Positions 9,207-54,525 of a stretch of DNA of 64,000 bases are shown one piece after another. Below the pieces are notes generated by a model. The model saw only the letters and a list, made by a program, of their open reading frames with translations. It was not told where the DNA came from and ran no database searches. The position numbers were made by a program, and so were the translations under genes. Every line of letters starts with the position of its first letter. The first letter of the stretch is position 1. Source of the DNA: a bacterium (GTDB taxonomy: Bacteria; Patescibacteriota; Microgenomatia; Curtissbacterales; GWA2-41-24); the NCBI GenBank assembly GCA_021813125.1, contig JAKALT010000005.1, positions 107 to 64,106 of the forward strand. Reading direction: 5' to 3'.

Positions 9207-9413
9207 TTAAGGAATTAAATCCTTAAGAGGTACTTTGAGAGCTAAAGCTATTTTGTGTAATGTCTTTAAAGAGGGGTTTCTTAAACCGCTTTCAATTTCG
9301 CTGATTGAAGTCAGATCCATCTTAGATTTTTCAGCTAATTGTAATTGGGATAGCTCTACCTTTTTCCTCAATTTTCTAATTCTCTCACCAACATTTTTGT
9401 AAATAGTAGCCAT
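9207..9413 (-). CDS. XRE-family helix-turn-helix transcriptional regulator
   Basis: 68 aa; RIRKLRKKVELSQLQLAEKSKMDLTSISEIESG is a typical HTH_XRE motif; 68 bp upstream of the 995-aa gene on the same strand. Confidence 0.7.
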   Translation of the reverse strand: MATIYKNVGERIRKLRKKVELSQLQLAEKSKMDLTSISEIESGLRNPSLKTLHKIALALKVPLKDLIP

Positions 9414-9583
9414 ACCATAACTAGTATGGTTTTTATGCCAAATTTAGTCTTTGGCACGGATGCCAAATTTACTGCTTGTTCTGAAGCCGAAACTTATTTA
9501 TAATTTTGCTGTAATATTGATCCGATTAGCCAATTCTGAGGGGATATTTGTATTTGGATAGACAAATAACTAATATATAACCG

Positions 9584-9590
9584 AAAGGAG
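9584..9590 (+). promoter_or_regulatory. Shine-Dalgarno (aaaggagg) for the DUF4352-like gene
   Basis: aaaggaggtgaaattaATG; 9-nt spacing to the ATG at 9600. Confidence 0.6.
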
Positions 9591-9599
9591 GTGAAATTA

Positions 9600-10163
9600 A
9601 TGGGAGATGAACCAAAAAAGAAGAACTTCTTTTTGAAGCACAAGGTCTTGTCTGTTGTTTTAGGTATTATTGTAATTTTAGTTGTACTTGCTGCTGCTGG
9701 TGGTGGTAAAAATAGCAACCAGGCCACAAATACACAGACAGCAAGCGAGAGTAAAACACAAACTAAGGAATCAGGCGATGTTACTCCTAAAGTAGGAGAC
9801 GTTACTAAGTTAGGTGATAGAGAGTTTGTTGTAAATTCTGTTAAAAGGTCAGGCGCATTTGGTTATAACACTCCTAAATCAGGTAAGGAGTACGTAATAG
9901 TAAACGTAACCATACGAAATTTAGGTAACAATGAAGTTTCATATAACCCTTTTGACTTTAAGGTACAGGATGCAAATGGTGCGCAGGAAAGCGAAGCTAT
10001 TGTTGTTCTCGATGATAGCTTAAACTCAGGTACCCTTGCAGCTGGAGGCAAAGTAACAGGTTCGATGCCATTCGAAGTTCCCGTAGGTGATGACGCTAAA
10101 TTGATATTCCAGCCAAGTTTCTGGAGTAGTCAAAGAGTGGTTGTAGATTTGGGTAGTAAATAG
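9600..10163 (+). CDS. Membrane-anchored DUF4352-like protein
   Basis: N-terminal TM helix (VLSVVLGIIVILVVLAAAGGG) then a beta-rich domain with YVIVNVTIRNLGNNEVSYNPFDFKVQDANG typical of DUF4352; ATG at 9600 preferred over the GTG at 9591 because of the RBS. Confidence 0.5.
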   Translation: MGDEPKKKNFFLKHKVLSVVLGIIVILVVLAAAGGGKNSNQATNTQTASESKTQTKESGDVTPKVGDVTKLGDREFVVNSVKRSGAFGYNTPKSGKEYVIVNVTIRNLGNNEVSYNPFDFKVQDANGAQESEAIVVLDDSLNSGTLAAGGKVTGSMPFEVPVGDDAKLIFQPSFWSSQRVVVDLGSK

Positions 10164-10395
10164 GTTAAAGACAGTAACAACGATTACATTTGGCGTGATG
10201 GAAAAGGTGGAGTAGGTGGTGGTGGAGAAGTCGTAAGACTTCCTGACACACTCTATGGTTATCCATTCTTCGAACAGAATGATCTTAACCAAAGCGAACT
10301 CTACTTTGGAGATTGGTCAATGTATATCATTGGAGATCGTCAAACTATGGCCGTTACTACAACGACCGAGATAATTAATTCCCTTAAAGTATACG

Positions 10396-10452
10396 TTAGT
10401 TTACGATAACTGACGACTTGACACGATCTTTTATTTGTGGTTCTATAAAATC
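10396..10452 (+). promoter_or_regulatory. Promoter/operator module 1 (TTGACAcgat...tatttgtg...tataaaat), immediately upstream of the HNH-like gene
   Basis: TTGACA at 10418-10423, AT-rich -10-like tctataaaat ending 10 bp before the ATG at 10453; near-duplicate of the module at 11098..11151. Confidence 0.5.
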
Positions 10453-11022
10453 ATGAAATTTCAAAAAGGTCATACAACAAATAAAGGCAGAATTCCATGG
10501 AACGAAGGTACAAAAGGTCTTTCAAAGGGTGGGAGGACAAGAAAGGATGACAAGATTCGTTGTACAGGTTGCGACCGTTTTTTTGATAGAGCTCCGAGTA
10601 GAATCGTGAAATACAATTTCCATGACACTGATTGTTTCAAAAAATATAGAAAAAATAACAAAAGGCGCCCTTGGGACTATGATGTGTATATAAAAAATTC
10701 AGGTGAGAATAACCATAATTTTAAAGGTATCATGGCTTGTTGCTCCTCCTTGCATAAATGGGTTAGATATCACAAAGGGAAACCAGCATTTTGTGTAGAC
10801 TGTGGAGCGACTAAGAATAATAATGAGAGAGATCTAGAATGGTCAAACCAAAGTGGGTTATATTTAGCCGATTTAGATGATTTTGTTGGGAGATGCTATG
10901 TTTGTCATAAAGAACATGACAAAAAATTAGGCTTTCCTAGAAAGAAGTCTTTTGATAAAAAAGGACACAGAATAGGAATAACTATCTTTGTCCCTTATGA
11001 ATACCGACGCAGAACCTTCTAA
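10453..11022 (+). CDS. Phage-type HNH-like endonuclease (Cys-rich), tentative
   Basis: N-terminal KGHTTNKGRIPWNEG and C-terminal CYVCHKEHD resemble phage HNH homing endonucleases; many Cys/His pairs; start at ATG 10453, in frame with ORF-track 10435. Confidence 0.4.
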   Translation: MKFQKGHTTNKGRIPWNEGTKGLSKGGRTRKDDKIRCTGCDRFFDRAPSRIVKYNFHDTDCFKKYRKNNKRRPWDYDVYIKNSGENNHNFKGIMACCSSLHKWVRYHKGKPAFCVDCGATKNNNERDLEWSNQSGLYLADLDDFVGRCYVCHKEHDKKLGFPRKKSFDKKGHRIGITIFVPYEYRRRTF

Positions 11023-11097
11023 ATGAGGGTTTAACAGGTTTTTTACTTAAAATTATATTCTTTATCCTACAATAATTTTACGACAGTCTTACGAGGT

Positions 11098-11151
11098 CTA
11101 ACGACCCTCTACGAGTTGACACGATATCCTATTTGTGTTAAATTATTTAAT
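11098..11151 (+). promoter_or_regulatory. Promoter/operator module 2 (TTGACAcgat...tatttgtgttaaat)
   Basis: TTGACA at 11116-11121, TGTGtTAAAT extended -10-like, ATG at 11152; shares ttgacacgat and tatttgtg with module 1. Confidence 0.5.
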
Positions 11152-11466
11152 ATGAATAGGCAACTTGAAGACAAGTTAAGATTACTTAAAATTGATCTTT
11201 TAAATATTCTTCATATTTTAGCAGTAAGCGGTTCCATAGCCTTAGAATTGAATGAAATATCCGATTCTACTTCTACCTCTGAATCAGAGCTTAAAGGTAG
11301 TATCAGTACTTTAAGGAGAATGAAAATTGATGACGAAACCTTAATTGTACCTGCTGGAAGAGATGAAGATGGACGGCTTAGATGGAAGATTAATGAAAAA
11401 ATAATTAAAAAAAGCGATTTGGCTAAGTTTTTAGAGGAAGAAATATTAGGAAAAGACAGTAATTGA
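11152..11466 (+). CDS. Hypothetical small protein (104 aa)
   Basis: ORF starting MNRQLEDKLRLLKIDLL...; the ORF-track upstream extension begins with TTG inside the promoter module. Confidence 0.4.
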   Translation: MNRQLEDKLRLLKIDLLNILHILAVSGSIALELNEISDSTSTSESELKGSISTLRRMKIDDETLIVPAGRDEDGRLRWKINEKIIKKSDLAKFLEEEILGKDSN

Positions 11467-11562
11467 GAATTATTAGAAAAACTTATCATAGGTTACTTTT
11501 TAGTGATAGATAAGTAAATAATTTTAGGGTTGTTTTCTTATTAAATAGAAAACGCTAGATAA

Positions 11563-11602
11563 CCCAGCAAATGACATTTAAATGTCTGTGCTGGGTTTTT
11601 TA
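11563..11602 (+). terminator. Rho-independent terminator
   Basis: cccagcaaatgacatttaaatgtctgtgctggg followed by tttttt. Confidence 0.65.
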
Positions 11603-11613
11603 TTGGATTTTTT

Positions 11614-11790
11614 ATGAAAGGTGCTAAGAAACAATTTAGTGGCAACAGAAAGGTAATACCCCCTAGAATTGCGTTTGTTTATGATGAGTCTCTAGGTAAT
11701 GAAGAAATATTACAGGATATGTATAACAGAGTGTTTGAAATAGCCAAACAAAATATTTTAGCTAGGAGAAGGCATTCAAATATATTATAA
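11614..11790 (+). CDS. Hypothetical 58-aa ORF upstream of the serine recombinase
   Basis: atgaaaggtgctaag...; MKGAKKQFSGNRKVIPPRIAFVYDESLGNEEILQDMYNRVFEIAKQNILARRRHSNIL; not in the ORF track (under 60 aa). Confidence 0.25.
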   Translation: MKGAKKQFSGNRKVIPPRIAFVYDESLGNEEILQDMYNRVFEIAKQNILARRRHSNIL

Positions 11791-11844
11791 TAAAATAATA
11801 CTAGAGGTCTACATCTTTAGATTAAACTTCTAGTAAGGGCAAAG

Positions 11845-13491
11845 ATGTTATCTGATTCAATTACTAATGACTTGGTCATATCTTCACAACCTCTAATTCC
11901 CGCTTTATATTGTCGCGTTAGCACAGGTCGTCAGGAGAATGAAAAAACAATTGACAGTCAGATCGATGAAATTATTACTAAAGCTGTTGGTGACGGCACA
12001 GAGATCCGGTCCGATTTAAGGTTTGTTGATAATGGCTGGCCAGGAGAATTATTAGCGCGTCCAGCACTTGACCAGCTTAGGGATGCAGCAACACGAGGAG
12101 AATTCAATGCCTTATATGTTTATGATTTAGGCAGGTTATCGAGATCTTTTTTGGATCAACTAATTCTACTTAAGGAACTTCAAGATCTTGAGATCAAAAT
12201 CATCTCATTACACGACATTAATGCAGAAAATGATGAGCAGGTTTTTGCGAGAAATGTTATGGGTTTATTCCATGATTTCGAGCGGAAAAAAATTGCCGAA
12301 AGAATGAGGCGAGGGAAACTTTTTAAAGCTCGAAGTGGAACGCTGATTAATGGACAATCCTTATACGGGTTTAACTATATTAAAAAAACTGATACTGAAC
12401 CTGCGCGTTGTGAAATTAATAAAGAGGAGGCCAGAGTAATTAGAATGATTTTCGATTGGGTAGGGAAAGAAGGTGCATCAACTAGAGAAGTCATTAAAAG
12501 GCTTTATGATTTAGGAATTTCACCTAGAAAAGGTAAAACTACATTTTGGACCCATGGACCAATCGTAAGACTATTAAGGGAAGAATCTTATGTGTCTGGA
12601 TATATTTATTACAATAAAAGCGAGGCTGTTGTTGCTAAGAAGCCTCTTAAAAACATTAAATATAAAAAAATTAAAAGGGGTAGCCGTAGAATGCGGCCAA
12701 GGGAAGATTGGATACCTTTTCAGGTTCCTAAAATTATTGAAGATAGAAACCTTTTTGATAAAGTCCAAAGGTTAATAGAATATAACAAAAACTTTGCCTC
12801 TAAAAAAAGAAAATACGATTATTTGCTTTCGGGTATAGCTTTTTGTGAATGTGGTGCCAAAAGGGTAGGAGATGGAATCGATAAAGACAATTTTTATTAC
12901 CGATGCGCCGAAAGACTATATAGATTTCCTCTAGAGAAAAAGTGCCATTCAAAGGGTATTAATGCGGCAGTTTTGGATAAAGTATTTTGGAATGAACTAC
13001 TAAAGTTTATAAACAATCCATCATTGATTAGACAGGCTGCAGAAAATTGGCTTAGAGAATCTGGCGATAATGATAAGGATAGGTTAGAAAAGCAGGAGTT
13101 GACTGAATTTATAGCAAGGGTAGACGATGAGGAACAGCGTTATGCCAAAGCTTACGGCGCAGGAGCCTTGGATTTTGAAAAGTTCAAGGAATTGATGAGG
13201 GGCACGAAGAGGAAGAAGGATGGTTACCAGCAACAACTCGATAATCTGAATAATAAAATTGCTAATCAAGGGATAGACAGTATTCAATTAGATGAGGTTG
13301 TGGAAGAAGCAGGGAGGGTTTTTCAGTCTTTAGAGCTGCAAGACAAAAAACAAATTGTTCGGGATATAATAACTAAAGTCATCGTGAAAGGAGGGCTTGA
13401 GGTAGAAGTAAGGGGAAGAATCCCGCTTTTTCCCTCAAATATGGGATATGAACTTAAAGGTTGGAATAGTTGGGTTGCCAAATGTTGGTAA
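11845..13491 (+). CDS. Large serine recombinase (resolvase catalytic domain + recombinase domain + zinc-ribbon/coiled-coil)
   Basis: N-terminal ALYCRVSTGRQENEKTIDSQ (catalytic Ser), YVYDLGRLSRS, zinc-ribbon Cys cluster CECGAKR...YYRCAE...KKCHSKG, C-terminal coiled coil; its 3' end overlaps ychF by 44 bp. Confidence 0.85.
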   Translation: MLSDSITNDLVISSQPLIPALYCRVSTGRQENEKTIDSQIDEIITKAVGDGTEIRSDLRFVDNGWPGELLARPALDQLRDAATRGEFNALYVYDLGRLSRSFLDQLILLKELQDLEIKIISLHDINAENDEQVFARNVMGLFHDFERKKIAERMRRGKLFKARSGTLINGQSLYGFNYIKKTDTEPARCEINKEEARVIRMIFDWVGKEGASTREVIKRLYDLGISPRKGKTTFWTHGPIVRLLREESYVSGYIYYNKSEAVVAKKPLKNIKYKKIKRGSRRMRPREDWIPFQVPKIIEDRNLFDKVQRLIEYNKNFASKKRKYDYLLSGIAFCECGAKRVGDGIDKDNFYYRCAERLYRFPLEKKCHSKGINAAVLDKVFWNELLKFINNPSLIRQAAENWLRESGDNDKDRLEKQELTEFIARVDDEEQRYAKAYGAGALDFEKFKELMRGTKRKKDGYQQQLDNLNNKIANQGIDSIQLDEVVEEAGRVFQSLELQDKKQIVRDIITKVIVKGGLEVEVRGRIPLFPSNMGYELKGWNSWVAKCW

Positions 13492-14527
13492 ATCGACGCT
13501 TTTTAATGCACTCCTAAAGAAACAGGTTGCTACAGCTGCCAATTACCCGTTTACGACAATTGAGCCGAATGTCGGGGTAGTGGAAGTGCCGGATGAAAGG
13601 CTAGAAAAACTCAAAGAAGTTATAGATAAATCGGAAGGCTTAGCGCCGGGTTTTAAAATAATTCCGGCGGTTGTTCAGTTTGTGGACATTGCCGGACTTG
13701 TTAAGGGTGCCCACAAGGGTGAAGGATTGGGAAATAAATTTCTTTCGCATATCAGAGAGGTTGATGCGATTGTATTTGTAGTCAGGGATTTTAAAAGTGA
13801 AGATATTATAAATACCGGTGATAATCCAAAAAGTGACCTTGAGGTTTTAAAAGCGGAATTATTAATGAAAGATTTAGAAACTTTGGAAAAAAGGTTGGAT
13901 ACGCTGGAGCGTGAGTTAAAACCATTGAGGCCAAACGATTTGAAAAGACAAACTTTAAAAGTCATGGAAAATGCCAAGAAATTAATCGGTGAAGGCAAGT
14001 GGCTGGTAGACGAACTGGAAAGTGAAGAGCTTGCCAAGATTGACGAACTATCTCTGCTTTCGGCAAAAAAAATAGTAGTAGTTGTAAATTCGGATGAGAG
14101 TGATTTAGCAAAAACGGCGGAGATTCCGGGAGCTTTAAGGATTAGTGCAAAGCTTGAAGAAGAATTAGCGGCTCTTTCTCTAAATGAACAAGAGGATTAC
14201 TTGAAAGAGCTTGGGATTTACGAGAGCGGTTTGGCAAAACTTGCAAAGCGCGCTTATGAAGTTCTGGGTTTGGAGACATTTTTAACGGCGGGCTCAAAAG
14301 AAGTTAGGGCTTGGACTATTGGAAAGGGGAGTTTGGCACCTAAAGCTGCCGGGGTGATCCATACGGATTTTGAGCGGGGATTTATTGCCGCGGATGTTGT
14401 GCCGTTTGATAAGTTTGTTCAAGCCGGTGGCTGGAAAGGTTCAAGAGATAGCGGTTTTGTTAAAACTATCGGCAAAGCGGAAGTAATGCCGGAAGACATG
14501 GTAGTTGAGTTTAAGTTTAGCGTTTGA
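13448..14527 (+). CDS. ychF: Ribosome-binding ATPase YchF
   Basis: MNLKVGIVGLPNVGKSTLFNALL...; G4/TGS regions conserved; 359 aa. Confidence 0.95.
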   Translation: MNLKVGIVGLPNVGKSTLFNALLKKQVATAANYPFTTIEPNVGVVEVPDERLEKLKEVIDKSEGLAPGFKIIPAVVQFVDIAGLVKGAHKGEGLGNKFLSHIREVDAIVFVVRDFKSEDIINTGDNPKSDLEVLKAELLMKDLETLEKRLDTLERELKPLRPNDLKRQTLKVMENAKKLIGEGKWLVDELESEELAKIDELSLLSAKKIVVVVNSDESDLAKTAEIPGALRISAKLEEELAALSLNEQEDYLKELGIYESGLAKLAKRAYEVLGLETFLTAGSKEVRAWTIGKGSLAPKAAGVIHTDFERGFIAADVVPFDKFVQAGGWKGSRDSGFVKTIGKAEVMPEDMVVEFKFSV

Positions 14528-14551
14528 TAGAATTTCAAAACTTATATAATT

Positions 14552-15052
14552 ATGGCGAGTATGTACGAGCTTATGATAGTTGCCACAACGGGCGGTAGTG
14601 AATCGCTTATAAGCCGCGTGGAAAAGTTAGTAAAAGATGCAGAGGGGGCCAATATAAAAGTCGGCAAGCTTGGGAAAAAGCAGCTTGCATATCCGATTAA
14701 AAAACAAACAGAGGCGGAATATTTTCTTTTGGAATTTGAGGCAGAAGGCCCAAATCTTAAATCGATTACCGATAAATTAAGGCTTGAGCAAGAAGATTTG
14801 TTAAGGTATATGCTTTTGGGGAAGAAGGAGAAAAGGCTTTCAAAAAAGGGTAAAAAGGTTGAAGTTGCCCAAAAGGAAGAGTCGAAAAAAGAAACTGCTA
14901 AAGTTACGGTGGTAACAAAAAAGGTATCAGAGGTATCGAAAGTATCAAAAGTCACAAAAGTAAAAAAAGAATCAAAGGTTGTTGACGCGAAGGCAAAAAG
15001 TAAGGTAGCATCAGGGGCGAAAGTAAAATCGAAAGGTAAGAGTAAAAAGTAA
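14552..15052 (+). CDS. rpsF: 30S ribosomal protein S6 with Lys/Val/Ser-rich C-terminal extension
   Basis: YELMIVATTGGSESLISRVEKL...GKKQLAYPIKKQTEAEYFLLEFEAEGP; tail KVSEVSKVSKVTKVKKESKV. Confidence 0.9.
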   Translation: MASMYELMIVATTGGSESLISRVEKLVKDAEGANIKVGKLGKKQLAYPIKKQTEAEYFLLEFEAEGPNLKSITDKLRLEQEDLLRYMLLGKKEKRLSKKGKKVEVAQKEESKKETAKVTVVTKKVSEVSKVSKVTKVKKESKVVDAKAKSKVASGAKVKSKGKSKK

Positions 15053-15061
15053 TGTCATCAC

Positions 15062-15150
15062 GAGTATTCCTAAATATCAGCAGGTCGCTTTGGCACCTTA
15101 CGTCAAATAAATTTGACTCCAGTCATGCCAAGAGCGCTCCTCTGATATTG
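15062..15150 (+). repeat. Copy 1 of a small palindromic interspersed element (tatcagcaggtcgcYttggcacc...gtcatgccaaKRgcgctcctctgatat)
   Basis: Long imperfect inverted-repeat flanks enclosing a variable hairpin (gtcaaataaatttgac); related copies at 15732..15780 and 40541..40626. Confidence 0.75.
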
Positions 15151-15181
15151 CTCGAATCCCGACTAGCTTTGGAGGTGCTCT

Positions 15182-15715
15182 GTGTCTAGTCGAGCTTCTC
15201 TCAATAAAGTATTGCTAATCGGAAATTTAACCCGGGATCCGGAGTTAAGGTACACTCCCAGCGGTGCTGCGGTTTGCACTTTTGGAATTGCAACAAACCG
15301 CTATTATGTTGCTTCGGATGGACAGAAGAAGGAAGAAACGGAATTTATAAAAATTGTTTCGTGGAATAAACTAGCCGAGCTTTGTTCGCAGCTATTGGCA
15401 AAAGGAAGAAAGGTTTATGTAGAGGGAAGGTTGCAAACCAGAAGCTGGGAAACACCGGACGGCCAAAACCGCCAGACGACAGAAGTAGTTATAGACGACA
15501 TGAGGATTTTGGATTCCAAGCGGGATTTTGAAGGTGGGGAAGAGGAATTATCCGGCGGAGCACCTGCTGATGAGGCGGAATTTGCTGAAGCAACAGGGAA
15601 GGAAGAAGCTTCGGGGAAAGCGCCTAAAGGCAAGGAAGTGAAAAAAGAATCTGCTGCCCCCAAGAAAAAAGAAGAGGAAGAAGACAAAGTCGATTTAGAC
15701 GACCTTCCATTTTAA
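15182..15715 (+). CDS. ssb: Single-stranded DNA-binding protein (GTG start)
   Basis: NKVLLIGNLTRDPELRYTPSGAAVCTFGIATNR; acidic tail ending DDLPF. Confidence 0.95.
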   Translation: MSSRASLNKVLLIGNLTRDPELRYTPSGAAVCTFGIATNRYYVASDGQKKEETEFIKIVSWNKLAELCSQLLAKGRKVYVEGRLQTRSWETPDGQNRQTTEVVIDDMRILDSKRDFEGGEEELSGGAPADEAEFAEATGKEEASGKAPKGKEVKKESAAPKKKEEEEDKVDLDDLPF

Positions 15716-15731
15716 AGAATGCCTAAATTTG

Positions 15732-15780
15732 TATCAGCAGCTCAACTTGAAACTTCGTTTCAATGTTGCTCCTCTGATAT
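15732..15780 (+). repeat. Copy 2 (short variant) of the palindromic interspersed element
   Basis: tatcagcag-ctcaacttgaaacttcgtttcaatgttg-ctcctctgatat; same termini, different internal hairpin (ttgaaac/gtttcaa). Confidence 0.65.
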
Positions 15781-15814
15781 AGAATTTAGGCTTTAAGAAT
15801 AGTAATATAATAGG

Positions 15815-16042
15815 ATGCCAAAATTTATTAAAAGATTATCGAGAGCCAGAAGATGTCCTCTTTGCATTGAGGATATTGAAGTTGATTATAAGGATGTTTC
15901 TCTTCTCAGGAAGTATTTATCAGAGCGTGGTAAAATACTTGGAAGAGCTCGGACCGGGATTTGTGCCAAGCATCAGAGACAAGTAACCCGAAGTGTAAAA
16001 AGAGCCCGTTATATGGCACTTTTGCCATTTGTTCAAGCTTAA
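15815..16042 (+). CDS. rpsR: 30S ribosomal protein S18
   Basis: [61 protein letters not shown]. Confidence 0.95.
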
Positions 16043-16052
16043 GAATTTAAAG

Positions 16053-17354
16053 ATGCCTGAAAATTTGCCTGCTGAATCCAAGAACTCTTCGCAATTTGCA
16101 GAAAAGGAAGCTCCAACTATACCTACCCCGAAGTTAAAAAAACCTTCATTTGTAAATTTTGTCATGCAATTTGCCGTTGTTGCGGCAGTCTTTTTTGCGA
16201 TTGGCTTTTCACTTGGGCAAAAGCGAATCGAAGTAGAAAAGAGGTCTTTTGTTCCGACCATTAGTGTTTCAAACCAGCTTCCGCCTAAAAATCAAAATGT
16301 AGACTTTTCACTTTTCTGGAACGTTTTTGATACTTTACCCCAGAAATACTTCGATAAAAGTGCGGTCAACGGCCAAAAAATGCTTTATGGCGCAATTTCG
16401 GGAATGGTTGCATCCCTGGGGGACCCTTATACGGCGTTTTTAGATCCTGGACAAAATAAAGCGATTGAATCTGAGATTGCGGGTTCTTATGAGGGTGTCG
16501 GGATAGAAATTGGCTTTGATAAGGACAACAGAATGGTTGTTATCTCACCACTTAAAGATACACCGGCAGACAAGGCCGGAGTTTTACCGGGTGATGTTAT
16601 TTTGAAAATTGGGGACAAAGATACTTTTGGGATGACTTTGCCGCAAGCTGTTGAGTTGATTCGCGGCCAGGCAGGAACAAATGTGACGCTCACCTTCCTA
16701 AGGGCCAATGTCGAGAAGCCTATCGTACGGGACATTCAGCGGGCCAGCATCGATGTTAAAAGTGTTGATGTCACATACAAAGATGCCAAGATTGGTCAGG
16801 TAGCCGTGATTCGCGTTTCCAGGTTTGGTGACAAGACAGATAACGAATGGGATGCGGCAGTAAGTGAAGCACTCACAAAAAATGTTAAAGCCGTTATCGT
16901 CGATATGAGAAACAACCCCGGCGGACTGCTGACTTCTTCTGTGCATCTGGCAAGCGATTTTGTTCAGGGCACAATTGTTAAACAGGAATACTCGGACGGT
17001 TCCGTGACATCTTTGCCGAGTGACCATGCCGGACGGTTAATGAATATGCCGGTTGCGGTTCTGGTAAACGGCGGTTCCGCTTCAGCTGCTGAGATATTTT
17101 CGGGAGCTTTGCAGGATACCAAGCATGGTAAAATTGTCGGAGTTAAAACTTTCGGCAAGGGGACAGTTCAGGATGTTGTTGATTTACCGGGAGGCTCAGG
17201 ACTGCATGTGACGATAGCCAAGTGGCTTACGCCAAAAGGGCATTCAATCCATCATGTAGGTATAACTCCGGATGTTACTGTTGATTTGATCCAACAAGAT
17301 AGAGATTCCGGGAAAGACCCACAGCTTGAAAAGGCCCTTGAGATAATTAAATGA
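16053..17354 (+). CDS. ctp: Carboxyl-terminal processing protease (S41 family, PDZ domain)
   Basis: PDZ GDVILKIGD; S41 blocks VAVIRVSRF, IVDMRNNPGG, LVNGGSASAAEIFSGALQD; ATG 16053 chosen over the ORF-track 16029 to avoid overlap with the rpsR stop. Confidence 0.85.
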   Translation: MPENLPAESKNSSQFAEKEAPTIPTPKLKKPSFVNFVMQFAVVAAVFFAIGFSLGQKRIEVEKRSFVPTISVSNQLPPKNQNVDFSLFWNVFDTLPQKYFDKSAVNGQKMLYGAISGMVASLGDPYTAFLDPGQNKAIESEIAGSYEGVGIEIGFDKDNRMVVISPLKDTPADKAGVLPGDVILKIGDKDTFGMTLPQAVELIRGQAGTNVTLTFLRANVEKPIVRDIQRASIDVKSVDVTYKDAKIGQVAVIRVSRFGDKTDNEWDAAVSEALTKNVKAVIVDMRNNPGGLLTSSVHLASDFVQGTIVKQEYSDGSVTSLPSDHAGRLMNMPVAVLVNGGSASAAEIFSGALQDTKHGKIVGVKTFGKGTVQDVVDLPGGSGLHVTIAKWLTPKGHSIHHVGITPDVTVDLIQQDRDSGKDPQLEKALEIIK

Positions 17355-36116: not shown

Positions 36117-36162
36117 AAGGTCAGGTCTTAGGCATAGTAAATCCTTGTAAGGCCTGACCTTT
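36117..36162 (+). repeat. REP-like palindromic element (AAGGTCAGGYC ... AAGGCCTGACCTT)
   Basis: aaggtcaggtc-ttaggcatagtaaatccttgt-aaggcctgacctt. Confidence 0.6.
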
Positions 36163-38695: not shown

Positions 38696-38746
38696 TAAGG
38701 TCAGGCTCTTGCACTTTGACTATCACAGGGTTAAGGCCTGACCTTT
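38696..38746 (+). repeat. REP-like palindromic element
   Basis: ttaaggtcaggctc-ttgcactttgactatcacaggg-ttaaggcctgaccttt. Confidence 0.6.
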
Positions 38747-40478: not shown

Positions 40479-40540
40479 TGTTTGTAGGTGTTGCAGGGGC
40501 CTGATAAAATGAAATAGAGGTAATTTATGGGATCTTTCGG

Positions 40541-40626
40541 TGAGTATTTTATATCAGCAGGTCGCCTTGGCACCTTTCACCCCGTCAGACGGGGTTTCAG
40601 TCATGCCAATGGCGCTCCTCTGATAT
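40541..40626 (+). repeat. Copy 3 of the palindromic interspersed element, inserted just after a short MGSFG ORF start
   Basis: gagtattttatatcagcaggtcgccttggcacc-tttcaccccgtcagacggggtttc-agtcatgccaatggcgctcctctgatat; same flanks as copy 1, internal hairpin replaced (ccccgtcagacgggg). Confidence 0.75.
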
Positions 40627-40684
40627 AAAAATAGGTTATTTAAAAAGCAGTAAAGAGTTTGTAACTAAAATAGGAGAATAACGT

Positions 40685-40822
40685 ATGGGGTCTTTCGGTG
40701 GTTTTTATAAAGGTGAGAAGAAAAAGCAGAAGAAAGAAGTTTTAGAGAAGAAAGCTTCGCATATTCCGAAAGTTAATGTAGTGCCGCAAGTTGAGATAAT
40801 CGGCAGCAAAAAAGGGAAGTAG
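40685..40822 (+). CDS. Small lysine-rich ORF (45 aa), MGSFGGFYKGEKKKQKKE...
   Basis: Preceded by ggagaataacgtATG; its first 16 nt (atggggtctttcggtg) are duplicated at 40527. Confidence 0.3.
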   Translation: MGSFGGFYKGEKKKQKKEVLEKKASHIPKVNVVPQVEIIGSKKGK

Positions 40823-44108: not shown

Positions 44109-44202
44109 TTTTCAGTTTTAATCTGCTATATCTTCCTCTGCTGACGCAGAGCGACACATATAAGATTGTTCTAAAAACGAGACTGATATATAATTTTTTC
44201 CA

Positions 44203-44232
44203 ATGAGCGGACATAGTAAATGGTCAACGATA
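44203..44232 (+). pseudogene. Decayed duplicate of the yebC 5' end (atgagcggacatagtaaatggtcaacgata = MSGHSKWSTI)
   Basis: 22/30 nt identical to the yebC start at 44312 (atgtcaggtcatagtaagtggagcacaatt); ORF terminates after ~30 codons. Confidence 0.5.
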
Positions 44233-44311
44233 TCAGCCATGCAAATTTATTTAATTAATATAAAGGTTTATGGAAGCATCCTGATATTGTGCTCAACAAA
44301 AGGAGATTTAT

Positions 44312-45052
44312 ATGTCAGGTCATAGTAAGTGGAGCACAATTAAACGACAAAAGGGCGTGACGGATGCTAAGCGCAGCCAGGCTTTCACGAAAATGGCAAA
44401 CGCGATAACTATTGCCGTCCGTGAAGGCGGTGGTGATCCTGCTTCTAATTTTAAATTACGGCTGGCAATCGATTCTGCTAGGGCTGTTAATACGCCGAAT
44501 GTTAATATCCAGCGCGCAATTGATAGGGGTCTGGGAAAAGGTGGAGCAGCGGCGATAGAAACCGTGGTCTACGAAGGTTACGGGCCAAGTAAGGTGGCAA
44601 TTATTGTGGAGGCGGCAACAGATAACAAAAACCGCACAACACCGGAAATCCGCGGAACAATTGAAAAAAATGGTGGGGTATTTGCCTCACCGGGTGCAGT
44701 TTCCTGGATGTTTAGTGATGTCGGAATGATTACGGTTGTCAAGGATAATAAGTCACTCGACGATGTTTTTGAGGCAGCGGTAGAAGCTGGGGCGGACGAT
44801 GTTGAGGATAGCGGGGAATCGGTTGAGGTTTATACAAAACCACATGATGTTGAAAAGGTTAAGAATGCACTAGCGGAAAAAGGGTTTACAATCCAGGGAG
44901 CGGAACTATTTAAAAAACCTACAACAACAGTTTTAATTTCCGAAAAAGCGCAAGCGGAAAAAGTTTTGGCATTTGTAGAAAAGTTGGAGGATTTGGACGA
45001 TGTGCAAAAAGTCTACAGCAACTTCGATATTCCAGAGAATTTGCTTCAGTAA
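44312..45052 (+). CDS. yebC: YebC/PmpR-family DNA-binding regulator
   Basis: MSGHSKWSTIKRQKGVTDAKRSQAFTKMANAITIAVREGGGDPASNFKLRLAIDSARAVNTP. Confidence 0.9.
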   Translation: MSGHSKWSTIKRQKGVTDAKRSQAFTKMANAITIAVREGGGDPASNFKLRLAIDSARAVNTPNVNIQRAIDRGLGKGGAAAIETVVYEGYGPSKVAIIVEAATDNKNRTTPEIRGTIEKNGGVFASPGAVSWMFSDVGMITVVKDNKSLDDVFEAAVEAGADDVEDSGESVEVYTKPHDVEKVKNALAEKGFTIQGAELFKKPTTTVLISEKAQAEKVLAFVEKLEDLDDVQKVYSNFDIPENLLQ

Positions 45053-53477: not shown

Positions 53478-54407
53478 ATGGATCTGCCTGCCCTGGTTGG
53501 CGAATTTTTAGAATATTGCGAAATTGAACGAAACCTTTCCCCTCTTACGATACGCGATTACCGGCATTATTTGGAATTTTTTTGTGAATGGTCTAAAGCT
53601 AACTCCCCTATTTTGAGACCTCAGGATTTAACTTTGGAGGTTGTACGCAAATATCGTGTTTATTTAGCCCATTACAACAGTCCAAACGGTAATTTACCCA
53701 TTAAAAAGGTAACGCAGAATTATTATGTTATTGCACTAAGATCTTTTCTGCGGTATTTGGTCAAAAAAGATTTGAAAGTAGTAACGCCTGACAAAATAGA
53801 GCTTCCAAAAACGGAATCGAGGTCCCTTAAGTTTTTGGACCGTGACCAGTTGGACAGGCTTTTGGGGCAACCGGATGTCTCAAAAGAACGAGGGTTGCGG
53901 GATAAAGCTTTAATGGAGATGTTGTTTTCGACAGGGCTTAGGGTTTCGGAGCTGTGCAGGCTTAACCGAGATCAGGTAAATTTGGAAAGGCGCGAGTTTG
54001 GGGTAATAGGTAAAGGGGGCAGGGCGCGGGTAGTTTTTCTTTCGGACAGAGCCTGTTTGTGGCTTGAGCGTTATCTTTCCAAAAGAAGCGATTCTTTTGG
54101 GCCGCTTTTTATCCGCTATTCGGGGAATATGGATCCGACTGTGAATGGAGAAAAAATGAGGCTAACTCCCCGGTCCGTGCAGCGGCTGGTTGATAAGTAT
54201 GTGCGGAAAGCTCGTTTGCCCGTCAAGGCTTCCCCGCATGTTTTGCGGCATTCGTTTGCAACAGACCTTTTGATGAACGGTGCCGATTTGAGATCGGTTC
54301 AGGAACTTTTGGGGCACAAAAACGTGGCTACAACGCAAATTTATACCCACGTTACCAACGCGCAGCTTAAGGACGTCCATAAGTCGTTTCATAGCGGGAA
54401 CAAATAA
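53478..54407 (+). CDS. XerC/XerD-family tyrosine site-specific recombinase
   Basis: RDKALMEMLFSTGLRVSELCRL, HVLRHSFATDLLMNGADLRSVQELLGHKNVATTQIYTHV (R-H-R-Y catalytic set). Confidence 0.9.
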   Translation: MDLPALVGEFLEYCEIERNLSPLTIRDYRHYLEFFCEWSKANSPILRPQDLTLEVVRKYRVYLAHYNSPNGNLPIKKVTQNYYVIALRSFLRYLVKKDLKVVTPDKIELPKTESRSLKFLDRDQLDRLLGQPDVSKERGLRDKALMEMLFSTGLRVSELCRLNRDQVNLERREFGVIGKGGRARVVFLSDRACLWLERYLSKRSDSFGPLFIRYSGNMDPTVNGEKMRLTPRSVQRLVDKYVRKARLPVKASPHVLRHSFATDLLMNGADLRSVQELLGHKNVATTQIYTHVTNAQLKDVHKSFHSGNK

Positions 54408-54416
54408 TGAATTATG

Positions 54417-54436
54417 CCTGCCTGCCGGCAGGCAGG
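54417..54436. repeat. Perfect 20-bp palindrome cctgcctgccggcaggcagg, 10 bp after the recombinase stop
   Basis: Self-complementary; flanked by three copies of aattatg. Confidence 0.6.
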
Positions 54437-54475
54437 AATTATGATTTATGAATTATGGATTGTGGTAGCCAAGGG

Positions 54476-54525
54476 TTAAGGTCAGGCCTTTGTCTCGATT
54501 CGCCCAAGTTAAGGCCTGACCTTTT
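54476..54525 (+). repeat. REP-like palindromic element
   Basis: ttaaggtcaggcc-tttgtctcgattcgcccaag-ttaaggcctgacctttt. Confidence 0.6.

Follow-up and report, generated by a model that had tools for sequence, protein, structure and literature searches.

Among the described systems closest to the element reported here are MITEs with structured transcripts, such as Correia/NEMIS of Neisseria, ERIC/IRU, RUP and BOX (PMC2229807, PMC3184786), and the GTAG/CGTC-tagged palindromes REP/BIME with their RAYT (TnpA-REP) transposases (PMC3733652). Surrogate-gene-end elements, such as e14 and phage 21 in icd or the islands in tRNA genes, keep the target gene intact by supplying its end, and the two gene-end copies of icd/icdC differ mainly by synonymous changes (PMC13626634). 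IS1549/IS1634 are autonomous insertion sequences of 1.5-2 kb with direct repeats of very variable length, which are identical copies made at insertion (PMC2266710). Integron attC sites and the hairpin ends of IS200/IS605 elements and PATEs also invite comparison. How host sequence comes to be joined to a structured recombination site is, to our knowledge, still an open question for integron cassettes. Candidate Phyla Radiation bacteria have tiny genomes, and as far as we know their repeat families and mobile DNA are almost uncharted.

The DNA analyzed here, called the window, is a stretch of 64,000 nucleotides from contig JAKALT010000005.1 of a Curtissbacterales bacterium. On its + strand the pattern TATCAGCAG-N(25-55)-CTCCTCTGATA occurs at 15075-15147, 15732-15779 and 40552-40625 (0 matches in 100 shuffles), and GCTCCTCTGATAT is exact in all three copies, which bears out an earlier sequence-only reading that had recognized three copies with shared termini. 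Each of the three is a single long imperfect hairpin on either strand (z -5.6 to -7.5) and scores 54-55 bits (E about 1e-15) against a covariance model built from related copies. Copy 1, in the rpsF-ssb spacer, has 73 nt, exact termini and the long form with a nested inner hairpin (fold -33 kcal/mol, z -5.6; 54.1 bits). Copy 2, in the ssb-rpsR spacer, has the short form of 48 nt with the apex C-TTC-G (54.5 bits), and copy 3 is again of the long form, with 74 nt (54.9 bits). The two long copies have the subterminal arms GTCGCYTTGGCACC and GTCATGCCAAKRGCG in common, including a compensated Y/R position, and the central hairpins of the three copies are mutually unrelated in sequence, both as the same reading had described. 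The shared 'gagtatt' that it had counted as part of the element falls inside remnants of the first codons of the downstream genes. A 33-amino-acid ORF spanning copy 3 is already annotated by gene callers.

A fourth copy, divergent and AT-rich, lies upstream of yebC (44231-44286, + strand). The covariance model found it at 44229-44288 with a score of 13.6 bits and an E-value of 0.2, which is weak alone. Its feet TATCAG...CTGATA are those of copies 1-3, and its membership of the family is supported by an orthologous variant at locus L066 and by its context. No consistent reading frame runs across copies.

The search for additional copies, by termini and by covariance model, yielded, besides this fourth window copy, more than 116 loci with the same exact termini in dozens of MAGs of Ca. 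Curtissbacteria, Daviesbacteria and other Patescibacteria. These copies are 45-74 nt long, all have hairpin interiors, and single MAGs hold at least 8-10 of them (e.g. MFBU01, MFCA01, JACPEV01). Text searches found no published description of such elements, and the window copies are members of a large, so far undescribed family of non-coding, probably mobile DNA hairpins that is spread over Ca. Curtissbacteria, Daviesbacteria and related Patescibacteria.

The foot of the hairpin, with (T)TA before TATCAGCAGGTCGCC on the left and TA after GGCGCTCCTCTGATA on the right, appears near-invariant, an invariance inflated by the ascertainment of loci through their exact termini. Beyond the search pattern, GTCGCC and GGCG are conserved at 76-99%. 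TATCAGCAGGTCGCC matches the reverse complement of GGCGCTCCTCTGATA as an imperfect inverted repeat of about 15 nt with a conserved asymmetry. Its extrahelical features are a bulged C after TATCAG, an asymmetric internal loop (T / CT) and, ahead of GGCG, a bulged base. Immediately outside, positions -2 and -1 are T (73%) and A (93%) and positions +1 and +2 are T (98%) and A (74%), a pattern in which a TA target duplication is inseparable from an extended palindrome. The apex is hypervariable yet always self-complementary, ranging from 3-nt loops to nested hairpins, and downstream of the hairpin there is usually a second short hairpin or a spacer of 20-90 nt, often with a Shine-Dalgarno sequence. 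Over the family, pairing holds in 93% of cells, and 9 of 22 pairs have changed on both sides, a level reached in 0 of 500 shuffles; shifted registers collapse. The covariation preserving structure that had been proposed from the window copies is thus confirmed family-wide, but since the element is a DNA palindrome, covariation by itself is no proof of RNA function. The two strands are not equivalent: of 117 interiors, 54 contain CTTCG and none contains its complement CGAAG. On the complementary strand CTTCG gives a C-GAA-G triloop, which is unusually stable in single-stranded DNA.

In most relatives the ssb-rpsR spacer has only 8-20 nt. An element occupies it in L150, L019, L141 and L138, and L128 and L147 have a mini or relic copy there; the rpsF-ssb spacer is likewise empty in most relatives and filled in some. 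Between L019 and L150 the flanks are identical at 29/30 and 20/20 positions and enclose unrelated interiors of 54 and 45 nt, and the same pattern of swapped interiors is seen between L042 and L086. Empty orthologous spacers and differing interiors between near-identical flanks indicate that the hairpin is an insertion element. Of the two natures first suggested for it, mobile element or structured RNA, the mobile one has gained support from distribution, presence/absence and interior swaps. The other, in the form of an RNase III or attenuator site of the rpsF operon, is not supported, given that most related operons are without the element, its neighbor genes are many and unrelated, and about 30% of copies in co-directional contexts are antisense.

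Copies are intergenic and often lie 13-60 nt upstream of start codons. They lie preferentially on the G-rich strand (82 versus 38 copies; 42 versus 11 at an absolute skew > 0.1), a bias confounded with gene orientation and gene-strand composition. Near-identical contigs and strains from several samples all keep the same spacing, with no empty or excised allele among them. The immediate neighborhood of the copies contained no transposase or recombinase gene, and the flanking DNA, about 900 kb in all, contained no protein family present in several copies; when 719 ORFs from around the elements were clustered all against all, only orthologous housekeeping genes grouped together. Nor was there a full-size element bounded by the same repeats, the left flank being without a distant repeat within 8 kb, or an autonomous insertion sequence with the same ends, as judged by the absence of long-range pairs of ends and of a multi-copy ORF family from about 900 kb around copies. 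The window encodes a large serine recombinase at 11845-13491, with no element-like sites around the gene.

The most unusual feature of the element, and a new finding, is the duplication of gene ends at its flanks. In front of each of the four window copies stands a short second version of the neighboring gene's end, and the intact end lies 3' of the hairpin and of a spacer of 20-90 nt with its own Shine-Dalgarno sequence (all coordinates on the + strand). At copy 1, an ssb start remnant of ATG plus seven codons (15052-15076) overlaps with the stop codon of rpsF (TAATG) and runs directly up to the left foot. It reads MSSRVFLN, compared with MSSRASLN in the real ssb, and with two replacements in seven codons it could simply be decaying. 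The spacer after copy 1 (15148-15181) holds half of a second module (TTGCTCGAA) and the Shine-Dalgarno GGAGG (15171-15175) and has related spacers in L143 and L137. Behind it, at 15182, lies the GTG with which the functional ssb starts. L143/L144, L136 and L137 have the remnant in this arrangement too, at an identical codon, the L143 orthologue being a simple 8-codon duplication. At copy 2, the rpsR start remnant ATGCCTAAATTTGTA (MPKFV; 15719-15733) lies 3 nt past the ssb stop and abuts the left foot; the spacer (15780-15814) precedes the real rpsR start, ATGCCAAAATTTATT at 15815, and the remnant arrangement is also found in L128.

At copy 3, the remnant (40508-40553) comprises the ribosome-binding region and first codons of a 45-amino-acid ORF (ATG 40527, MGSFG..) and again abuts the left foot. 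Its nucleotide alignment score is 18, compared with a control 99th percentile of 11.5, and the arrangement is orthologous in L066. The spacer (40626-40684) ends in the duplicated ribosome-binding region, and the functional start is at 40685 (ORF 40685-40822). At copy 4, the yebC start remnant (44203-44230, MSGHSKWST) agrees with the real start in 9/9 residues but in only 68% of nucleotides, and its identity to the yebC starts of L063 and L084, which are present there in single copy, is 93% and 89%, respectively. The yebC starts fall into two types, and the positions of these are swapped between the window and L066. The spacer here (44287-44314) has the Shine-Dalgarno AAGGAG and reaches the functional yebC start, ATG 44312 (gene 44312-45052). 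Translation of remnant, hairpin and gene as one protein was considered and rejected, with frame shifts or stops in 4/4 window cases.

In the family as a whole, a gene-end duplicate of any repeat type flanks about 15-20% of copies. In 23 of 114 copies a repeat of the left flank is found downstream with a score at or above the 95th percentile of the control (about 6 expected), and protein-level duplicates reach the 99th percentile in 17 of 109 (about 1 expected). In every case the left foot is where the left copy of the duplicate stops. The repeats measure between 10 and about 100 nt, and short ones are perfect (18 nt in L018, 12 nt in L104). A strict screen for intact 5' remnants retained only 4 of 111 copies, two of them in the window, whose lineage is unusually rich in such remnants.

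The divergence between the two copies is of the coding type. In 16 coding pairs with 150 codons there are 19 amino-acid differences (131/150 residues identical), and differences at codon positions 1, 2 and 3 number 33, 13 and 86. The corresponding pS is 0.80 and pN 0.14, the latter biased downward by the selection of some pairs through protein similarity, although most were also found at the nucleotide level. Synonymous saturation together with protein conservation suggests that one copy of each diverged pair probably derives from a diverged relative. The pair at L137, with 90% identity, shows that duplication in situ or gene conversion takes place as well. At L087 the remnant is the 3' half of a tRNA-Ile gene, with a compensated T stem, and a coherent intact tRNA stands beside this foreign half. 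The joint is in the anticodon loop, and such joints have been described for some integrases targeting tRNA genes. The first 30 codons of ssb are a mosaic between the close relatives L150 and L019.

Compared with the systems named above, the hairpins resemble bacterial MITEs in being short, non-coding, multi-copy, intergenic and often co-transcribed with their neighbors, in their terminal inverted repeats, AT/TA-rich targets and long hairpin folds, and in their presence or absence between related genomes. They differ from MITEs in the combination of an apex hypervariable in sequence and length with a foot near-invariant across genera, and no partner insertion sequence with the same ends was found around the copies. 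Furthermore, MITEs have 2-bp target duplications, whereas the flanking repeats of 10-100 nt seen here are, when long, diverged gene-end copies. With REP/BIME they share the imperfect palindrome with a conserved bulge, high copy number, extragenic position, mosaics with further short modules and a presumed recognition in folded single-stranded form. However, GTAG/CGTC is absent, the ends are TATC.../...GATA on both strands, the length is 45-74 rather than 20-40 nt, and most copies lie upstream of genes, whereas REPs lie at 3' ends.

The likeness to integron attC sites extends to the order of parts: a conserved foot that pairs (R box) is followed by an asymmetric spacer left unpaired, by another paired box carrying extrahelical bases and by a terminal structure whose variation determines the length. 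In both, sequence is conserved far less than structure, both are strand-asymmetric, and the crossover, with short cargo attached, is at one foot in attC and would be so here. Yet the foot is TATCAG/CTGATA and not RYYYAAC/GTTRRRY, the copies are dispersed and not in arrays beside intI/attI, no integrase was identified, and the cargo, 20-150 nt of spacer and gene-end fragment, is not a whole ORF. IS200/IS605 ends and PATEs likewise have hairpins instead of long terminal inverted repeats, a conserved (T)TA 5' of the left end, a one-strand orientation bias and tandem related hairpins (A then B, with the same feet). However, the orientation bias of the present family is only 2-4:1 and confounded with gene orientation, and IS200/IS605 make no target duplication and carry no host flank; long flanking repeats are not expected there.

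As in the surrogate-gene-end elements, the gene is kept intact by a supplied end and the displaced resident end persists as a pseudogene fragment on the other side. The repeats are of the kind known from e14 in icd, namely direct repeats of the target gene end with mainly synonymous differences (the 16 pairs) and the tRNA half with its compensated stem. Unlike in those elements, only 80-170 nt, with no integrase or cargo genes, lie between the two gene-end copies, dozens of different genes are targeted, and 5' ends are replaced as often as 3' ends.

Distribution of the family, presence/absence, interior swapping, conserved structure, strand asymmetry, flanking duplications and coding-type divergence were all observed directly, and in our best reading, which we hold to be likely, they reflect a mobile hairpin cassette of the MITE/REP/attC kind that is able to bring a replacement gene end. 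The foot would be the cut-and-join site of a putative trans-acting recombinase or transposase, which might recognize it either in folded single-stranded form or as a terminal inverted repeat. The joint would be made at the TA beside the left foot, in AT-rich DNA located at an end of a gene or slightly inside it. The mobile unit may consist of the hairpin and spacer and, in a fraction of events, also of a copy of the donor's adjoining host sequence. On entering the orthologous site of another species, such a unit would supply a substitute, be it a gene start (equipped with a ribosome-binding site of its own), a gene end or one half of a tRNA, and the other copy would stay as a short dead remnant abutting the left foot while the gene remains intact. 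The enzyme, the intermediate (circle or single-stranded fragment) and the choice of the incoming copy at each site are inferred only.

A more specific version, which we offer tentatively and consider possible but not probable, regards the hairpin as the recombination site of an unrecognized miniature cassette system in the Candidate Phyla Radiation, that is, an attC-like folded-DNA site with a few dozen bases of cargo. This cargo would be the ribosome-binding site together with the opening or closing codons of a host gene, or else one half of a tRNA. Such a cassette would travel from species to species and seek out the orthologous gene, exchanging ends without inactivating essential genes such as ssb, rpsR, fusA, rpoC and yebC. 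If true, this version would show how a structured recombination site gets attached to host sequence.

The family is abundant, crosses genus boundaries and is found directly in front of the core genes ssb, rpsR, yebC and fusA. If the gene-end copies are truly imported, the element is a marker, and perhaps an agent, of frequent swaps of short gene segments from one species to another that leave essential genes undisrupted, and the reading of recombination, operon structure and start-codon annotation in these genomes would be affected. The attC-like architecture is a testable lead to a new folded-DNA recombination system.

Among the rival explanations, the one that survives best does without a dedicated enzyme. 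The palindromes would be passive hot spots of homology-facilitated illegitimate recombination: foreign ssDNA taken up by competence-dependent bacteria would be trimmed back to the stable hairpin and joined by one homologous crossover in the neighboring gene and one microhomology (TA/ATA) joint at the hairpin foot. The joints do show A/T microhomology to the left foot, 2-4 nt long, close relatives have mosaic ssb 5' ends even where the element is absent, and either copy can look foreign (yebC in the window versus L066; the intact tRNA with its foreign half in L087), all of which agrees with this route, as does the failure to find a transposase around the copies. We nevertheless regard it as unlikely, because it does not explain the origin and cross-genus spread of hundreds of copies with near-identical 30-nt feet and conserved bulges, the exchange of interiors between identical flanks, or the short perfect direct repeats around composites of a hairpin and a second hairpin.

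It is rather improbable that the hairpins are cis-acting RNA structures in mRNAs, serving transcript stabilization, as RNase III sites or in a translation relay. The folds are stable, all copies in the rpsF-ssb-rpsR operon are sense (the two in the window and those of L019, L128, L138, L141, L143/L144 and L150), and co-directional contexts are 47 sense to 21 antisense overall; the 2-4:1 orientation bias would suit selection on the transcript. Against this stand the antisense fraction of about 30%, 9 copies between convergent genes, and the compact spacers without element in most related operons. The relay form, in which an upstream ORF from the remnant start would be translated into the hairpin, open it and couple to the real start downstream, we consider improbable as well. 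The cis-RNA readings also have on their side the remnant ORF of copy 1, which stops inside the real ssb start region (15187-15189), good Shine-Dalgarno sequences in spacers and an invariant CUCCUC that resembles an anti-Shine-Dalgarno sequence, but any cis-RNA function leaves the amino-acid-level conservation of the remnants unexplained. The G needed for a C(UUCG)G tetraloop follows only 6 of 58 CTTCG motifs, and the sense strand is not favored by G-U pairs (13 on the + versus 64 on the - strand, a count dominated by one recurring subfamily feature).

Searches for known RNA signals agree with this judgment. Rfam gave 0 matches over the whole window at the gathering threshold, and at E <= 10 over 14400-16100 only chance hairpin matches, e.g. 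mir-359 with 23 bits against a gathering score of 68, so that the ribosomal-protein leader once envisaged as a possible known family did not appear. Terminator and promoter scans of the window showed nothing above shuffled expectation at the four element sites. An intrinsic terminator has a GC-rich stem and a T tract, whereas the 3' flank of the element is TA(T/A) with no T run. An outward extended -10 box (TGATATAAT) was also considered and is unsupported, with positions +3/+4 not conserved.

Ordinary transposition with long, variable target duplications made in situ, followed by replacement of the functional copy by a diverged allele through recombination, is likewise a poor candidate. There is a precedent in IS1549/IS1634, with repeats of 8-514 bp (PMC2266710), and direct repeats of 10-100 nt do flank the hairpin and second module, perfect in L018, L104 and L062 and at 90% identity in L137. 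Long pairs are, however, synonymously saturated and their remnants mostly intact and protein-conserved, a second independent event would be needed at nearly every old site, and the flanking DNA revealed neither an IS1634-like transposase nor a full-length partner sharing these ends. Finally, that metagenome assembly concatenated strain variants at the repeat is extremely improbable, since, although all sequences are MAG or metagenome contigs and some break at this multi-copy element (L123 and L126 end 84 nt before the gene), the same arrangement is found in independent assemblies and samples and recurs at orthologous sites of different species, the two copies differ by 25-40%, far above strain variation, and an artifact would still require a hairpin inside an essential gene of one strain.

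Dispersed copies stand singly or with one companion hairpin, and a tandem array of hairpin and flank units was seen in L070 only. Among viral contigs there was one uninformative match, on a 2-kb contig.

The pattern TATCAGCAG-N(25-55)-CTCCTCTGATA matched the forward strand of the window at 15075-15147 in the rpsF-ssb spacer (copy 1), at 15732-15779 in the ssb-rpsR spacer (copy 2) and at 40552-40625 before an ORF of 45 aa (copy 3), with no further match in the window and 0 matches in 100 shuffles. All three copies carry the 13-mer GCTCCTCTGATAT without a mismatch, and each forms one long imperfect hairpin (z-scores -5.6 to -7.5, on either strand), confirming the three copies described in the sequence-only reading. 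The two long copies have subterminal arms in common, with one compensated position (CGCT/AGCG versus CGCC/GGCG), and the central hairpins of the three are mutually unrelated. With a covariance model built from related copies, copies 1-3 scored 54-55 bits. A fourth, AT-rich hairpin before yebC, with the feet TATCAG...CTGATA (44229-44288), scored 13.6 bits (E 0.2), which is insufficient by itself; it would not stand alone, and is backed by an orthologous counterpart in L066 (L-numbers denote compared loci from other genomes or metagenome contigs) and by a context like that of the other copies.

The feature most worth following up was missed in the sequence-only reading, namely duplications of gene ends flanking the element. 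In each window copy, the start codon and a few codons of the downstream gene are repeated before the hairpin: MSSRVFLN at 15052 versus the real start MSSRASLN at 15182 for ssb, MPKFV at 15719 versus MPKFI at 15815 for rpsR, MGSFG at 40527 and again at 40685 for the 45-aa ORF, and MSGHSKWST at 44203, with identical residues at 44312, for yebC. All four remnants stop exactly at the left foot of the hairpin, and the intact genes stand after hairpin and spacer, the latter with its own Shine-Dalgarno sequence. Public gene calls include a 33-aa ORF at 40527-40628 (L121, L122), running from the remnant start through copy 3; the elements thus give rise to spurious small-protein annotations.

Further copies were sought beyond the window. 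Scanning species-representative genomes for both exact termini gave more than 116 loci among the matches listed, with about three chance matches lacking a hairpin (L017, L082, L088). Among these matches, carriers were nearly all MAGs of Ca. Curtissbacteria, Daviesbacteria and other Patescibacteria, single MAGs contributed at least 8-10 copies, and several TPA MAGs titled 'uncultured Gammaproteobacteria' likewise carry both termini. Elements span 45 to 74 nt. As the search demanded exact termini, part of the invariance of these 21 bases follows from the search itself; outside the search pattern, GTCGCC (76-99%), GGCG (80-83%), A at -1 (93%) and T at +1 (98%) are conserved, and in an independent rpsR-locus sample the element matched with at most one terminal mismatch. 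Rfam, ribosomal-protein leaders included, held nothing comparable, and text searches found no account of such repeats in these phyla. The hairpins are certainly a new repeat family, and may represent a novel kind of miniature cassette.

Flanking repeats are found across the family. When the 48 nt left of the element were sought within 250 nt to its right, 23 of 114 copies reached at least the control 95th percentile (about 6 expected), and at the protein level 17 of 109 reached at least the 99th (about 1 expected). The right-hand copy starts after the hairpin and a second module; in some copies this module is another hairpin with identical feet (TATCAGATTCGCCGAAGGCGAAGGCTGATA, for example), in others the motif TTTTCTCGCnnnGCTCGAAA. 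Repeats measure 10 to ~100 nt. The short repeats have few or no mismatches (18 nt in L018, 12 nt in L104, 10 nt in L062; 16 nt with 2 mismatches in L036), and long ones are gene ends: N-termini of a response regulator (L080), Fpg (L072), EF-G (L015), YebC (L100, L066, window) and SSB (window, L143/L144, L136, L137), and C-termini in L103 (same strand) and of RpoC in L111 (opposite strand). The L087 repeat consists of the 3' half of tRNA-Ile(UAU), beginning in the anticodon loop, and the T stems of remnant and intact tRNA differ by compensated changes. No repeat partner was found at distances above a few hundred bases, which leaves no large segment between the repeats. A strict screen for intact 5' remnants retained 4 of 111 copies versus 0.05 expected; two of the four lie in the window, whose lineage is unusually rich in them. 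The sole array-like arrangement observed, in L070 (MFCA01000029.1, ~3400-3900, minus strand), is a tandem array of at least two units with ~90% identity, each made of host flank (46 nt), hairpin, second hairpin and spacer.

The divergence of the paired copies was analyzed in 16 pairs, with 150 codons counted after the start. Residues were identical in 131 of the 150, and nucleotide differences at codon positions 1/2/3 numbered 33/13/86, many of the changes at positions 1 and 2 being TCN/AGY serine switches; pS was 0.80 (saturated) and pN 0.14. Neutral decay would place about half as many changes at position 2 as at position 3, and neutral decay of the remnant over the time of synonymous saturation was rejected (13 versus 86, p ~4e-6). 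A start or stop codon is retained in most remnants. We infer from these sequences that one copy per pair derives from a diverged relative, where it was functional; the alternative to such import is that the functional role passes back and forth between the two copies.

Three observations at individual loci fit such an import. First, two types of yebC start exist. With the single-copy starts of L063 and L084 the window remnant shares 93% and 89% identity, and with the functional copy of L066 82%; the functional window start is 86% identical to the L066 remnant and 68% to its own remnant; the introduced type is thus functional in the window and a remnant in L066. In L087, the acceptor halves of the intact tRNA match and the remnant would not pair with the intact tRNA, so that there the remnant is the foreign piece. 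In L150 versus L019, ssb codons 1-30 are 73-77% identical, compared with 88-93% for the rest of the gene, with switched serine codons (AGT TCT versus TCT AGT); the rpsF-ssb spacer lacks the element in both. Such a mosaic ssb 5' end is the pattern that exchange of 5' ends would leave. Not every duplication is an import: the L137 pair is 90% identical, hence some pairs arise by recent duplication in situ or by gene conversion, and the ssb remnant of the window has replacements at two of seven codons, which may reflect plain decay.

Eighty rpsR-anchored metagenome loci showed the element to be an insertion. The ssb-rpsR spacing is 8-20 nt in most relatives (L127, L129, L137, L140, L152 and others); full copies of differing subtypes occupy it in L150, L019, L141 and L138, a 24-nt mini-copy in L128 and only a right-end relic in L147. 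The close relatives L019 and L150 (rpsR 90-98% nucleotide identity) have flanks identical at 29/30 and 20/20 positions and unrelated interiors (54 and 45 nt), a pattern repeated in L042 versus L086, so either the site was re-used or the interior was exchanged with the feet kept constant. Together with the family-wide spread, these filled and empty orthologous spacers support the mobile miniature element suggested in the sequence-only reading. A minimal 37-nt family member (TATCAGCAGGTCCCCGCAGCGCGTGGCTCCTCTGATA) lies in the ychF-rpsF spacer of L143 (1202-1242); the window spacer has none, another presence/absence difference.

The structure-preserving compensatory change noticed in the window held at family scale. 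In 30 distinct copies of 52-54 nt, a single 22-pair helix is 93% paired; nine of its pairs vary on both sides (GC, CG, AU and UA at one position, for example), and the outer 11 do not vary. The observed covariation was reached by 0 of 500 shuffles, and shifted registers dropped to 28-52% paired. Certain irregularities are conserved: the C that follows TATCAG is bulged, a T faces CT, and GGCG is preceded by a bulged base. Each 74-nt form is a 54-nt form with an extra small hairpin (often TCGAGTCnnACTCGA) inside the loop, bounded by a 5-nt loop repeat (TTTCA...TTTCAG or CTTCG...CTTCGG). Since the element is a DNA palindrome, compensatory change is no proof of RNA function. The two strands are nevertheless not equivalent: of 117 distinct interiors, 54 contain CTTCG, in a wide range of stem contexts, and none its complement CGAAG. 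The G required by the C(UUCG)G RNA tetraloop follows only 6 of 58 CTTCG motifs. On the complementary strand the motif is a C-GAA-G triloop, d(GCGAAGC), which is unusually stable in single-stranded DNA. The strand bias and the triloop are a hint, not proof, of selection acting on a folded DNA strand.

We propose that the element is a mobile hairpin of DNA and that its irregular, near-invariant foot would be the recognition and joining site of a putative trans-acting recombinase or transposase. The joint would lie at the TA beside the left foot; junctions have 2-4 A/T bases in common with the target. Hairpin and spacer would form the mobile unit, at times with the donor's adjoining host sequence. 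A small circle or single strand bearing hairpin, spacer and host flank may be the intermediate, and its recombination at or within the homologous host segment could yield every observed arrangement (a left copy that abuts the foot, a right copy beyond the spacer, a foreign origin of either copy, repeats of variable length, intact genes). The DNA flanking the copies and the near-identical contigs showed neither an enzyme nor a circle or empty allele.

The element behaves as MITEs and REPs do, yet it lacks features that define each: the search found no partner IS, a fixed short target duplication is not demonstrable here, and the GTAG or CGTC tag of REPs (PMC3733652) is missing. Architecturally it is closest to integron attC sites, in which a paired foot is likewise followed by an asymmetric unpaired spacer, a second box carrying extrahelical bases and a terminal structure that varies, and in which the strands are also asymmetric, although the consensus differs, copies do not form arrays and no integrase was identified here. 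The flanking repeats resemble the icd/icdC pair around prophage e14 (PMC13626634) and those of islands in tRNA genes, but only 80-170 nt, gene-free, separate them here, and dozens of different genes are hit.

Passive palindrome hot spots, where hairpin-protected imported single-stranded DNA is joined illegitimately and its other end homologously, would account for the junctions but not for the spread and constancy of the feet, and are an unlikely explanation. Somewhat less probable are long variable target duplications like those of IS1549/IS1634, whose direct repeats vary from 8 to 514 bp (PMC2266710), with later allelic replacement.

We are equally doubtful of a cis-acting RNA role (processing, stabilisation or translational relay via the remnant ORF) as the primary explanation. 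In rpsF operons every copy has the sense orientation, and in copy 1 the remnant ORF terminates in the ssb start region; against this, the element is absent from most related operons, ~30% of copies are antisense, and the protein-level conservation of remnants is left unexplained. The first two of these objections also leave the operon-specific structured RNA of the earlier reading unsupported. By crude ORF calls, copies are intergenic, often 13-60 nt upstream of a start codon, with 47 sense and 21 antisense in co-directional gene pairs, 22 between divergent and 9 between convergent genes. The element's plus strand coincides with the G-rich one in 82 of 120 cases and, at |skew| > 0.1, in 42 of 53, a bias inseparable from gene orientation; window skew is positive throughout, and all four copies are on plus. 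Promoter and terminator scans at the elements found nothing. An assembly artefact is very unlikely, as the arrangements recur in independent assemblies and different species.

Besides the mobile hairpins, the window holds a second, unrelated palindromic family, (TT)AAGGTCAGGCC...GGCCTGACCTT(TT), with three intergenic copies (36117-36161, 38697-38745, 54473-54521); its motif is also in the L008 flank. A small hairpin module, TATCTTCCTCTGCTGACGCAGAGCGACACATATAAGAT (44128-44170), just upstream of the yebC remnant, is related to modules flanking elements in L099, L107 and L110 (..GTCGCTCTGAGTTAGCAGAGGAAGACA..), so the family forms mosaics of several hairpin types. Runs of (T)TGACAATTGACAA / CAATTTAACAATTT, often beside hairpin elements, occur in intergenic leaders upstream of ssb, fusA and others in related genomes (L137, L141, L146, L148, L067, L005, L078, L111), and may be promoter-like (TTGACA) repeats. 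Isolated inverted repeats at 54404-54449 (ATAATGAATTATGCCTGCCTGCC/GGCAGGCAGGAATTATGATTTAT without spacer) and 60019-60077 (a 26-nt pair 7 nt apart) are both unrelated to the element family. A large serine recombinase of 548 aa (11845-13491; Resolvase, Recombinase and Zn ribbon) overlaps the ychF start by 44 nt with its 3' end. Upstream of it (1-11800), a TIR-domain protein (5117-6154), a 995-aa HEAT-repeat protein and a DUF4352 protein are encoded at lower GC (0.35-0.36), and this region may represent an integrated element or a defence island next to the ychF-rpsF operon.
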